From NCBI GenBank assembly GCA_964016885.1, contig OZ024743.1:151590001-151654000 (forward strand): 64,000 nucleotides of DNA, read 5' to 3'. The notes below the pieces were generated by a model that was given only the letters and a program-made list of their open reading frames with translations, searched no databases and was not told the DNA's origin. The stretch comes from Eledone cirrhosa. Lineage: Eukaryota. The first letter of the stretch is position 1. Each line of letters begins with the position of its first letter. A program made the position numbers and the translations under genes. This document shows positions 20,536 through 42,280 of this stretch, one piece after another.

Positions 20536-22210
20536 GGAAAACATGTAAAATAATGTTGTTGATTATGGTATGTGATTACTGCTCACTATAGTAACTTGGG
20601 TTTTGTGTAAAACCTTTTCTCTTAGTTATCAGAATATGAAATTTCTTCACTCAAAAAAAAAAAAAAAAAAAAAATGTTCATTTTACATATATTTTGCTTT
20701 GTAAAACATAGGAATATGTGAAAGAATACGAACAGATAAATATGGCATACTACTCCCTGAGGTTAAATATCATTGAAAGATTAGTGAATATCATGCAATC
20801 AATAATCTTTGTTAAAAGCTTTGTTTGTAGACCCTACTATTCTCCACCAGTGATTCTACATAACTGAAGCACAGCACATACAAACATATTCTTTTTACTA
20901 TCATTTTTAGTCAGTTCTGTTTATCACATTTTGTATCCTAAGATTAACTCTCCACACTTTTGTAAATGTCTTCCTTGGTTTTTTCCTCTTCCACAGCTTC
21001 CTTCCAGTTATTTACCCAACTCTCATCATCCATACATGTTACATATCTGTACCTGTGTAATCTTTCTTGCACACAGAATCAGATTCCTTTTATACCCAGT
21101 TTTTCACTTAATTTATGTGTGCTTTGTCATGAACACAAACATTACGCATCCAGTAAATGTGATGGTGATGATATATGATATATATATAATATATCATCAC
21201 CATTATACATCTATTTTTTATCTGGGCATGAGATAGATAGATTAGACTGGCAGACAGACAGGCAGTTATGTACTCAATTAAAGTACCTGTAGGAACAACT
21301 TAAATGTGTGTGTGTAAAGGGATGATTGGAAATTTCTTTTTGTTAGAATGGGGTTCAAATGAAGAAGATAACGACTATAAGATATGTAATATAAAGTGTA
21401 TATATAAAATATACACCACAAGCATGTTCTGGATTAATTGGAAAGTATCGCAACAGATTCCATATTTACATTCAAAGTAGCTTGGAAAAGTATTCTATTT
21501 ATTCTCTTAAAAAATATGGAAAGAAAATATGGAAAGAAAGAGAGGGAGGGAGAATGAAGTGAGGAAAAAGAGGGATTATGAGACAGAAAGAGGGAAATGG
21601 AAAAAGAGAAAGGGAAGAGATAGAGAGAGATAAATAGCTTGTGTTTATGTGTGTATAAGTTTGTGTCTCATACTCCACTGGGCTATATACATTACTTTGC
21701 TTGTCAGATAAATGATAAGGACAGTTTCATTACCACCCCATTACTCTATATAAATCCACCCCAGCTGCTATTTTCTACATCATGCCATGCATTTATAAAA
21801 ACAGAAGCTAGATCTAAATAAGATGTTTTTCTTTCACCAAAGGACATGGATGTGTCTCAGTACATTAAAAAAGTAGAATTGAACCTAAGATAGGGGGGGA
21901 ACTGACAAATGATGCACCTTACTGTTTTAACAACCACAAGAGTTTATAGTGCAGAGAAAAAGTTCACATAGCCTTACATAATTTACACTAAAGAATAAAA
22001 ACAAATGAAGGTAAAAAGGCCAAAAAAAAACAAGATAATCATTAATATAGAAAGTAGAACCCTCCCTGAAAAGGTGTACTTTTATATATATATATATATA
22101 TGCAAAACAGGGGGGGGGGGAGACAAAGACAATGGAAATAACAAGAGAAAAATGGGCAGACCATTCCCCTCAGTGAACACTGGAATGCAATATATGTATG
22201 TAAGTATATA

Positions 22211-22308
22211 TATATAAAGTCTGAAGAGCAAATCGGGCTAGAGTCAGGTCTATAGCATTAATATAGATCCTGAGCCACCCATCTGTGAAATGGTTGTAAC
22301 TATGTATA
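22211..22308 (+). ncRNA. Minimal type-I hammerhead ribozyme with long helix II (Penelope/retrozyme type)
   Basis: Helix I 22211-22220 pairs with 22299-22308 (9/10); CUGAAGA 22221-22227; long imperfect helix II; GAAA 22287-22290; short helix III; GUA cleavage triplet 22296-22298; AATAAA at 22312. Confidence 0.65.
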
Positions 22309-22559
22309 ATCAATAAAGACCTTAATGTGAAACCTTACTATGTTTTCAATATATACATTCTGCCTTAGCATAGAATGTTGATTTTAGTACCCACTTCAGT
22401 AAGCCACAAATCTACTGAACCATCTATTATTAGTTTATATATATATATATATATATATGCAGAGGTTATATTTAATTTGTTGGGATTCAACAAGCTTAAA
22501 CATTTTTATAACTGATATAAAGCACTCAACTATTTAGTGGAGTAAATATACAATATATT

Positions 22560-22806
22560 AATAAATGGAAACTATATTTATAAAACCATAATTTTTTTTA
22601 TTATATATATTTTATATATTTCAGGGGTGACCAAGGTAAATTATGGTGCGCATTTCAACCGTTGAGGTTGTCTTTTTTCCGGGTATGTCAATATTTATTT
22701 ATAAAACAAATCTGTATTTTATCTGATGAAAGCGCACCATAATTTACCTTGGTCGCCCTTGAAATATATATAATAAAATAATTATGGTTTTATAAATACA
22801 GTTTCC

Positions 22807-22813
<7 letters not shown>
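22560..22813. repeat. (TA)n-flanked fold-back element with ~90-bp imperfect inverted arms, probable inverted Penelope terminal repeat
   Basis: AATAAATGGAAACT.TATTTATAAAACCATAATT...GACCAAGGTAAATTATGGTGCGC and its reverse complement flank a ~70-nt spacer. Confidence 0.85.
22715..22780 (+). ncRNA. Minimal type-I hammerhead ribozyme
   Basis: Helix I UAUUUUAU/AUAAAAUA (8/8); CUGAUGA 22723-22729; helix II 22730-22760; GAAA 22761-22764; palindromic UAUAUA helix III; AUA cleavage triplet ending 22772. Confidence 0.7.
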
Positions 22814-22863
<50 letters not shown>

Positions 22864-22865
<2 letters not shown>

Positions 22866-24372
22866 CATCATCATCATCACCATTTTATGTCCGTTCTTCC
22901 ATGCTAGCTGGGTTAGACGGGTTGTCCTGTTGTGGGCAGTGTCCGGTCGGCTGACCACGCCTTGCTCATACGGGAACTGATTCCGGCTTGATTTCTACAG
23001 CTGGATGTGCTTCCTAATACCAACCTCATTTACAGTGAGTGCTGGGTGCTTTTTTTCCATGGCGCCTACACGTCCACTTTACAGTGTGGGCTGGGTGCTT
23101 TTTTACCGTGGCACCTCCACGACCACTTTGCAGTGGGAGGGTGTGGGGGCATATTGTCTATATGCTTCAGCTTCGGTTTGTACCCGTGGGGGTCGGGTCT
23201 TCTGTATTACTGTGTGACGCCAGAGGTCACGGTCGTGTGTCATCGCCTTTGAGAGGTGTAATTGGGTAAGGTCGGCTTTTATCACCTCATCCCAGGTCTT
23301 CTTGGGTCTCCCCACTCCGTGGTTTCCATCGACCTTTTTATGCAGCTGTCATCCTTCATACGCATCACATGTCCATACCAACGCAACCGCCTCTCCTGCA
23401 CACAGCATTTGCTCATATGCTCAGTCTCTCTCTCAATTCATTTATGTTTTGCCGTTCGTGTATATTACAATTACACATCCATCGGAGCATGCAGACTTCG
23501 TTTCTTTCTAATCTACGCAAGTCTTCTACATTCAGCGCGCAGGTCTCACTACCATATAACATTGCTGTTCGTATACATGCATCATACAGTCTGCCTTTGA
23601 TTTTGAGGGAAAAGCCTTTTGCAGATAGCAGTGGCAGTAGTTCCCTGAACTTCTGCCATCCTGTTCTTACCCTAGTTATTGTACTTTCCGAACACCCACC
23701 TCCGCTGCTAATTTGGTCACCTAGGTAGCAGAAGCTGTCTACTCGTTCTACAGAGCCCTCCCAGAGATTGGTGGTACTTGTTTCCTGTGGCTGTTTGCGG
23801 CTTGCTGTCCCAGCACAGCTGCTACATGTGAAGCTTACATTCTTAGTTAAGCTTCCTGAGATCCCGCTACATCTCTTGTGTACCCATTGTTTGCATTTGG
23901 GGCAGAGAATCGAGTTCCTACCTACACCTTTCCTACATACTGAGCAAGGCCATTTCCCTGGGGGAATCTGGGTTCTGTTTTCTCGTTTACTTACAAGGAC
24001 CTTAGTCTTTGTCATGTTGACTTTGAGACACTTTCTTTCTAGTCCCTTCTTCCAAGTTTGTAATTTCTTCTCTAGTTCTACCATAGATTCAGCTATAAGT
24101 GCGAGGTCATCTGCATACAGAATTGCCATGGGCATCCGGTCTTAAACTCCTCCGTTATTGCCTGCAGAACTATGATGAACAAGAGAGGGCTAAGAACAGA
24201 GCCCTGGTGGACACCTACCTGTACGCTAAATTCCTCGCTATAGTCATTGTTAATCCCAACTTTGCTGACTGCTCCCCTATACATAGCTTGTACAGCTTTC
24301 ACAAGCCATTCATCTACTCCTAGTTTTCTAAGAGCCCACCAGATTATAGCACGGGGAACTCTGTCAAAGGCT
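22864..24372 (-). mobile_element. Young RTE LINE (family 1), 5' truncated, RT plus PHD-like finger, frameshifted, in (TA)n
   Basis: GVHQGSVLSPLLF, LYADDL, CSVC...CPKC..WVHKRC...CSSC, FCYLGD, AMLYGSET, GRPKKTW; (GAT)n tail. Confidence 0.97.
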
Positions 24373-24777: not shown

Positions 24778-25093
24778 TGGCCTTGCAATCGAAAGGTTGT
24801 GAGTTCAATTCTCAGACTGGGTGATGTGTTGTTTCCTTGAGCAAGACACTTTATTTCACATTGCTCCAGTTTATGCAGCTGTAGAAATGAGATGATAGGG
24901 ACTGGGGTCCATATCATTCCACTGCAAAGTGGTTGTGGAGGCGCCACAGCAAAAAGGCACCCAGCACTCACTGTAAATGAGGTTGGTGTTAGGAAGGGCA
25001 TCCAACTGTAGAAATCAAGCCAGAATCAGTTCCCGTCCCACCCTTGCAAGCAGGGAAAAGCGGACGTAAAATGAAATGAAATGATGATGATGA
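24778..25093 (+). mobile_element. SINE family B (tRNA head, CORE-like middle, RTE family-1 tail), 5' truncated
   Basis: GTTCAATTC B box; CCTTGAGCAAGACACTT; tail near-identical to RTE 3' UTR 43750-43908 and its terminal CGGACGTAAAA. Confidence 0.9.
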
Positions 25094-25184
25094 TATATAT
25101 AGACTCTGATCTCCCCAATGACTATCTGTTCTCTTTCGTGCCTCCTCTTCTTTTTGGTCTTAAACTTCTACTCCATCTACTCCT

Positions 25185-25272
25185 AGTCTTTTAAGAGCCC
25201 ACCAGATATTGAACTGAGAAACTGTCAAAAGTAAACGTTCTGCAGGTCAACAAATGCCAAGTAAAGGGGCTT
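25185..25272 (-). mobile_element. Short older RTE family-1 RT fragment
   Basis: Reverse complement encodes KPLYLAFVDL...IWWAL, matching 42474-42570. Confidence 0.75.
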
Positions 25273-41210: not shown

Positions 41211-42124
41211 ATTTTTATTTGTGATCATATTTTTTTAAATGAATTATTTAGTACAATATCATCTGATCCTACACCCACAGGTTTTGATCCCATTTCCAAT
41301 TTGGCTGCACATGTCAATGCTGTTCATGAAGATTATGAACAGAAGAGATGATGATACAAACACTTCATGTAGTCGGACACACATTTATCTGAATAAAAAT
41401 ATGAAGGCATTTTTATAGAGACTTCAAGGCAACAAGAAGCTGTCCATACTATTGCAGAACCTTCTACATGTCCTGTGGAACATGATTTTATGCCCTTTTC
41501 AAGTCCACAAAACAAGCATACACTTCATGACAATACTCGTTCAATTTCTCAAAGTGAATATTTGTTCAGCTATGCTACATTCAGAGTGAAAAGTTTCCAT
41601 TCTAATTTTATGTAAGAACCTTTTATTAAGTAATGTTCCAAACATCAGTTTAATAATGAAAAGTTTAAGATATGTTACTAACTTCCTTCAAATTCTTATT
41701 ATTTTCAAAATAAATTGTAGTGTAGGCTATGCATTTTATTAGAAATAAAATATATAAAGGGTTAATTTATATGCTATCAACACAAGTCATAAAAAGAATA
41801 TATATAACTAACAATTAGTTCTCTATTTAATCACATCCTCCCCTCTCTATCTGAATGAAAACTCTTTCAAATTTGGTTTGGTTGATACAAATGCAGCAGC
41901 AAATTCTTATGACAAATTTGAGTTTCAGATTATCCTTATTAATTATAAGCTCATATTTAACTATCACAAATATATATAAATTATGAATTTATCATATTTA
42001 AATATCAGTACCTCCTCCCACATTGGTGAATTATGTATATATATATATATATATATATATTGGGAATAGTTTTCAACTAGCAATAACCATGACTCGGATA
42101 TACCTCACTGGCCATAGTACTGCC

Positions 42125-42280
42125 TAAGGCCAGTTACTACAATGGCACCATACCAGGTACGTATGCTTTGTAAGCCCTGAGGACCAGCTTGTTCAACCTG
42201 TGCTGAAGTTGAACAAGTTGGTCCTCAGGGCTAATGAAACGTATGTATCTGTTATCGTACCGTTGTAGTAACTGGCCTTA
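42125..42280 (+). other. 73-bp ungapped hairpin with 10-nt loop inside a (TA)n-flanked insertion
   Basis: Arms 42125-42197 and 42208-42280; 61 Watson-Crick pairs, 7 G:U pairs and 5 mismatches on the plus strand. Confidence 0.95.

Follow-up and report, generated by a model that had tools for sequence, protein, structure and literature searches.

The Hydra clade of Penelope-like elements is defined by the protein motifs RW(K/R), DKT, CxCx5C, CxxC and CxH, by the lack of GxKF, and by a C-terminal GIY-YIG; hammerhead ribozymes of this clade, in elements with (TA)n targets, have already been published, including that of Hydra-1_Obim from Octopus bimaculoides (Craig et al. 2021, PMC8557442). In another clade, the Anolis Poseidon element PAc carries a hammerhead in its pLTR, has AT-rich targets and two 3' ends split by an optional tail of 30-40 nt, and its ORF overlaps the hammerhead (Frangieh et al. 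2024, PMC11167929). The function of Penelope hammerheads is still open according to the accounts given in these sources (PMC8557442, PMC11167929). Animal non-LTR retrozymes are described as non-coding and low in GC, a single unit being repeated in tandem with one type-I hammerhead shared by all units (PMC7229834; 10.64898/2026.07.22.740005). A further published set of hammerheads has the type-I order, a short palindromic helix III, and a G10.1-C11.1 pair, and consists mostly of dispersed single motifs from truncated elements, with opposite-strand pairs 100-700 bp apart.

The window, i.e., the 64-kb stretch of DNA analyzed here, contains two minimal type-I hammerheads on one strand, named HHR1 and HHR2, which belong to two repeat families, A and B, respectively (Table 1). 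Here it is proposed that the locus very probably consists of two high-copy repeats nested in (TA)n, in which a Hydra-type Penelope-like element supplies HHR2 as the hammerhead of its terminal repeat and HHR1 likely stems from the decayed 3' end of a further Penelope-like family; both copies are predicted to be inactive here. The two 3' ends split by an optional tail, the AT-rich targets, and the pLTR hammerhead described for Anolis PAc have counterparts in the families found here; however, the tail is ~75-85 nt here, and the ORF of family B begins ~220 nt past the cut site. Like the non-LTR retrozymes, the elements of the window are non-coding, with a type-I hammerhead and low GC; in contrast to them, each carries a motif unrelated to the other, and one arm lies inverted. 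The further set resembles HHR1 and HHR2 in motif order and helix III and includes opposite-strand pairs as here, whereas HHR2 has an AU-rich helix II base in place of the G10.1-C11.1 pair, and in HHR1 helix II is long (~20 bp) and helix I is bulged, with 11 bp. In a by-eye comparison, neither motif matched any of the hammerheads given in File S2 of the Hydra-clade study, including Hydra-1_Obim (PMC8557442). No description of family A or family B was found in the literature searched, as far as the texts available in part go, and both may already stand in Repbase or Dfam.

Table 1. Features of the hammerhead-bearing locus and its neighbor, in window coordinates.
Feature	Positions	Strand	Remarks
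(TA)n run	22205..22216	.	Point at which family A is 5'-truncated; source of 6 nt of helix I in the initial annotation
Family A copy	22217..22435	+	5'-truncated; ~85% identity to other copies
HHR1	22217..22311	+	CUGAAGA 22221-22227, GAAA 22287-22290, UGGUUG, U22297-A22298; predicted cut after 22298
(TA)n run	22436..22457	.	Between both elements; likely target of the family B insertion
Inverted family B arm	22458..22651	-	5'-truncated, with ~85-nt tail and 9-nt insertion, without CUGAUGA
Family B sense arm	22652..22813	+	Truncated 3' end (pLTR) of Hydra-type Penelope-like element; 99% identity to many genomic copies
HHR2	22715..22780	+	CUGAUGA 22723-22729, helix II, GAAA 22761-22764, UAUAUA, U22771-A22772; predicted cut after 22772
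(TA)26 run	22810..22862	.	Right flank
LINE fragment	22864..24360	-	Neighbor outside the hammerhead elements; (GAT)n end adjoins the TA run

The neighboring LINE fragment, which we take to be RTE-like, contains an RT-like open frame (23416-24141) and has inverted or direct partial matches around 24900-25210 (24909-25207). Elsewhere in the window, 42018-42131 of the minus strand has a partial match to U4 snRNA (65.4 bits, above the gathering score), which runs into (TA)n and is likely a truncated retrocopy.

Both motifs present CUGANGA, GAAA, and NUH in type-I order together with helices I-III. In HHR2, helix I is formed by 22715-22722 and 22773-22780 with 8/8 pairs, the helix II region folds at -7.7 kcal/mol, helix III is the palindrome AUAUAUAU, and the cut triplet is AUA. 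The helix II region of HHR1 is 59 nt long (22228-22286) and folds at -17.5 kcal/mol, its cut triplet is GUA, and its helix III is AUGGUUGU, which two CpG-type changes have made degenerate; other family A copies mostly have A-CAGUCG-U or A-CGGUCG-U. The initial annotation had helix I pairing in register in both motifs; on the 5' strand of HHR1, only AAGU (22217-22220) belongs to the element, the remaining 6 nt being flanking (TA)n. Because the family A copy of the window starts at AAGU, most of the helix I originally assigned to HHR1 is flank; the element-derived part is only 3-4 bp, and most of helix I has been lost. The helix I proper to family A, as present in genomic copies, has 11 bp with two bulged A, and other copies have GATTAAC where the window copy has (TA)n.

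A type-I descriptor, written once both motifs were already known, matched HHR1 and HHR2 and nothing else on either strand of the window; 200 block-wise dinucleotide-shuffled windows gave 5 matches (0.025 per window), or 2 when helix II had to fold at -4 kcal/mol or below. The two same-strand hammerheads initially annotated, with cuts after 22298 and 22772, were recovered, and equally good motifs were rare in shuffled AT-rich controls. An Rfam scan of the window gave 48 matches at E<=1, none of them to a hammerhead model.

The HHR2 stretch, searched against the 3.0-Gb host genome, gave 1,718 candidates, with 99% identity for the top copies among the 40 scored, and a 31-mer spanning the HHR2 core had 4,458 exact genomic matches (0 for the reversed control). 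Some family B copies reach >700 nt further upstream, with a GIY-YIG-like fragment beside one of them, and this fragment, used as a query, had at least 150 genomic matches. From the 150 listed matches, 20 GIY-YIG loci were selected by score or long open frame; 18 of them have the family B hammerhead in the sense orientation, 1.2-2.3 kb downstream of GIY-YIG. HHR2 is a pLTR hammerhead of an ORF-bearing Penelope-like family, and the window copy is a truncated insertion of it; the earlier label of HHR2 as non-autonomous is not supported, given this linkage to an RT/GIY-YIG ORF. One full-length copy (L091, ~4 kb from pLTR to pLTR) has, in order, an inverted tail, a pLTR bearing both the hammerhead and the tail, a frame of 743 aa, a 3' UTR of 1.3 kb, and a second pLTR/hammerhead. 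This frame contains RWR, DKT, CxCx5C, YVG, CxxC, and CxH, and no GxKF; its RT motif reads YRDY, as against YRDD in a sister family, and therefore the L091 element itself is probably defective. In the ESM Atlas, the nearest clusters to the L091 frame scored 0.96-0.98 and included GIY-YIG and RVT_1 clusters. Pfam gave no RT or GIY-YIG match for the whole frame, and a GIY-YIG match below threshold (E 0.00048) for one frame fragment.

Judged by its protein motifs, family B appears to belong to the Hydra clade of Penelope-like elements. It shares with that clade the motif set (with RWR in place of RWK), (TA)n targets, present here as the flanks of the family B loci, a type-I hammerhead near the 3' end, and inverted 5'-truncated copies (PMC8557442). 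It differs in length, as Hydra-1_Obim has 2,507 bp and the clade is generally <3 kb, a general trait rather than a strict criterion, whereas family B has ~4 kb and a 3' UTR of 1.2-2 kb (PMC8557442).

The arrangement of the copies is also that of Penelope-like elements, with pLTRs, an inverted 5'-truncated copy, and a tail at one end only. In a count of 30 family B loci, in which L026 and L027 are one insertion and ~3 rows refer to another copy within the locus, the inverted partner was present at 20 and absent from 10, and the tail stood on the sense arm in 9 and on the inverted arm in 15, never on both. The arms are unequal, and the position of their junction varies among loci. The initial annotation did not mention the partial, inverted copy of the HHR2 element at 22458-22651; this arm and the tail at one end match the published inverted 5'-truncated Penelope copies and the two reverse-transcription start sites described for the Anolis element (PMC11167929). 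A recurrent point of truncation or inversion is seen in many family B copies (L002-L030), around CTATCC, ~75 nt upstream of the core and ~5-25 nt upstream of the match (22652 in the window).

The HHR1 stretch gave 1,014 candidates in the genome search, and full-length matches among the 40 scored were 81-89% identical. As the initial annotation had stated, HHR1 and HHR2 are unrelated in sequence; each belongs to an independent repeat family. A family A 24-mer had 126 exact matches, and 52 among the 100 listed fall in one 50-bp array of a partial motif. The family has two preferred 3' ends, a main end and an optional tail, which in the window copy correspond to a common end near 22358 and a ~75-nt tail reaching ~22432, and TA follows the end in 22/29 loci. 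These fixed 3' ends are accompanied by 5' truncation, TA flanks, and inverted partial copies, the inverted partner being present in 10/29 and 8/31 loci. The assignment of both motifs to the Penelope kind of minimal hammerhead is borne out, family B being the pLTR of a Penelope-like element and family A having Penelope-type ends. Many family A copies begin ~20-30 nt upstream of helix I. Tandem arrays of partial family A hammerheads, with 50-bp and ~64-bp units that are incomplete ribozymes, were seen in L299 (G000:C3:170870463-170873384) and L285.

No RT/GIY-YIG ORF linked to family A was found in 144 loci scanned, some of which are one place counted twice, and 40 regions around pattern matches had no consistent ORF linkage. 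None of five Penelope-like families examined in the genome carries family A. Longer copies of family A run 300-500 nt upstream into a TG/TA-rich tract, because of which the upstream walk failed; the 3' UTRs of two other Hydra-type families of this genome also hold a TG/TA-rich tract. As candidate parents, the GIY-YIG families beside L034, L282, L243, and L268 were rejected, all of them lacking family A, and so was the upstream continuation common to L195 and L198, which is a duplicated locus plus another repeat.

Across 22 B-like variants, which are related to one another and were chosen by a pattern fixing the core and helix I, there were 48 double-change cells against 16.6 after shuffling, with 0 of 500 shuffles as high, and 10 of 21 pairs change on both sides; given this selection and relatedness, helix I is discounted, and the outcome of the shuffling cannot be taken as a probability. 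Helix II covaries in 8/9 pairs, and the helix III palindrome is kept in all 22 rows, alternating among UAUAUA, UAUGUA, and UGCGCA. Covariation of the helices, proposed earlier as a check, was thus found in helices II and III of the B-like variants, and was not found in family A, where 38 rows gave 13 cells against 13.4 in shuffled alignments. For family A, RNAalifold favors a 5-bp hairpin that sequesters the core and does not recover the hammerhead. Core conservation in family A copies, another proposed check, was upheld: among 414 cells at the 11 core positions, 17 are mismatched, where 27.6-31.7 would be expected from other non-CpG positions (P 0.02-0.003), and all 11 bases are intact in 23/38 rows. 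CpG sites decay heavily (98/298). Such a pattern would be consistent with a motif that functioned in the source elements and with copies that then decayed neutrally.

The initial annotation further suggested that, if both ribozymes were active, their cuts in a plus-strand transcript would free a ~474-nt RNA able to be circularized. Both cores and cut triplets are indeed intact and on one strand, 22299-22772 spans 474 nt, and hammerhead cleavage leaves 5'-OH and 2',3'-cyclic phosphate ends, which can be ligated. However, in equilibrium predictions the probability of HHR2 helix I on the plus strand is ~0 with the inverted arm and 0.54 without it, and 55 kcal/mol are needed to force this helix in 22299-22812; for the inner 3 bp of HHR1 helix I, the cost is 8-11 kcal/mol. 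Since the inverted arm is predicted to sequester HHR2 in a long hairpin, the circle is unlikely. Predicted helix III duplexes are favorable for B/B (-3.2 kcal/mol) and unfavorable for window A/A (+1.4) and A/B (+1.7), and the family B 5' and family A 3' helix I strands are predicted not to pair. The circle junction would rebuild no hammerhead. The pair is not recurrent either: family A was found within 1.5 kb of 0/29 other family B loci, and a diverged B-like copy lies within 1 kb of 2/62 family A loci (69 examined), with a spacing unlike that of the window. Outside the 62, locus L196 has a family A tail, (TA)n, and an inverted family B tail, an order that would also be expected if insertions were nested in TA ends. 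In vitro, no cleavage was detectable for a single minimal Penelope hammerhead (PMC4209133), and the Anolis hammerhead is reported to have required its protein (PMC11167929). Retrozymes comprise two or more units in tandem, all carrying one and the same complete hammerhead, and the window departs from this: its motifs are unrelated to each other, it has no such period, and the pair does not recur. Two contig runs of unspecified kind confirmed the repeats, with many variable joints. Release of a 474-nt circle is regarded as highly improbable.

The repeats could also be read in two other ways. The inverted repeat at 22458-22813 might be a MITE (a DNA transposon) and the hammerhead patterns might be chance in AT-rich DNA; this would account for a long TA-flanked inverted repeat, for the Rfam result, and for the lack of covariation in family A, yet it is hardly tenable in view of the unequal arms and variable junction, the loci without an inverted arm, the low rate of chance motifs in shuffled windows, and the covariation of the B-like variants. 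The sense arm leads into a Penelope-like ORF, and this linkage contradicts the MITE reading of family B. It is rather unlikely that family A is a short, non-autonomous hammerhead element (SINE-like or a solo retrozyme) that arose from a Penelope pLTR and depends for its movement on a Penelope protein acting in trans. In favor of this, the loci and families scanned yielded no parent ORF, the longest stop-free stretch is 39 aa, the preferred 5' start of many copies would suit such an element, and a preprint derives animal retrozymes from Penelope pLTRs (10.64898/2026.07.22.740005). On the other side, longer copies continue into the TG/TA tract, family B likewise has a preferred 5' junction despite its parent ORF, and a second same-strand copy lies within 1.5 kb in only 2/31 loci, the arrays being of partial motifs. 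Because of the Penelope-type ends and the tract resembling two Hydra-type 3' UTRs, a truncated Penelope end is likelier for family A than a non-autonomous element, and HHR1 is likely the decayed 3' end of a second Penelope-like family.

Under the nested Penelope reading, the GIY-YIG nuclease would nick (TA)n, and reverse transcription would begin inside the element RNA at either of two sites, the main end or the tail end, and stop early, leaving an inverted partial copy. The younger family B would have inserted into a (TA)n end provided by the older family A copy. Precursor RNA of the parent element may be cleaved weakly by the hammerhead, acting as a dimer through the helix III palindrome or with the element protein assisting. 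The earlier suggestion of dimers through helix III would fit family B, with its palindrome in 22/22 rows and the favorable B/B duplex in the model.

With this locus, which is otherwise ordinary, a known class gains two hammerhead families. The locus shows that two hammerheads on one strand of a repeat-rich animal genome need not form a circle-making unit and can instead be Penelope ends that are nested and unrelated. Family B, being young, with thousands of copies and a covarying helix III palindrome, appears to support the dimer model and may allow an easy in vitro test. Should family A, against the odds, be an uncatalogued hammerhead element that is non-autonomous, has a long helix II and a dimer-type helix III, and is mobilized in trans by Hydra-type Penelope proteins, then several Hydra-type families, each with its own hammerhead and one with a variant CAGAAGA core, would form a natural series for testing the roles of Penelope hammerheads.

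Other Hydra-type families were seen in the genome. A second one, with a ~705-aa frame (L172 4630-4900, L175, L178, L180, L380), has a terminal hammerhead-like motif in which the core is the variant CAGAAGA, helix I has 5 bp, and helix III is a stem-loop; CAGAAGA was present in 42/43 occurrences, in partly overlapping loci. A third (L332-L347) has ~750-aa frames and a pLTR hammerhead of its own, and TA/TG microsatellite extends over kilobases of its 3' UTR. In a very young family (L348-L359, L382, L383; G000:C1:183739171 onward), ~100 of the 150 listed GIY-YIG matches are 100% identical; it has many 830-aa open frames and tandem units ~6.7 kb apart, and no clear hammerhead was found in it. Among the loci examined, at least 10 further distinct types of hammerhead-like motif were present.
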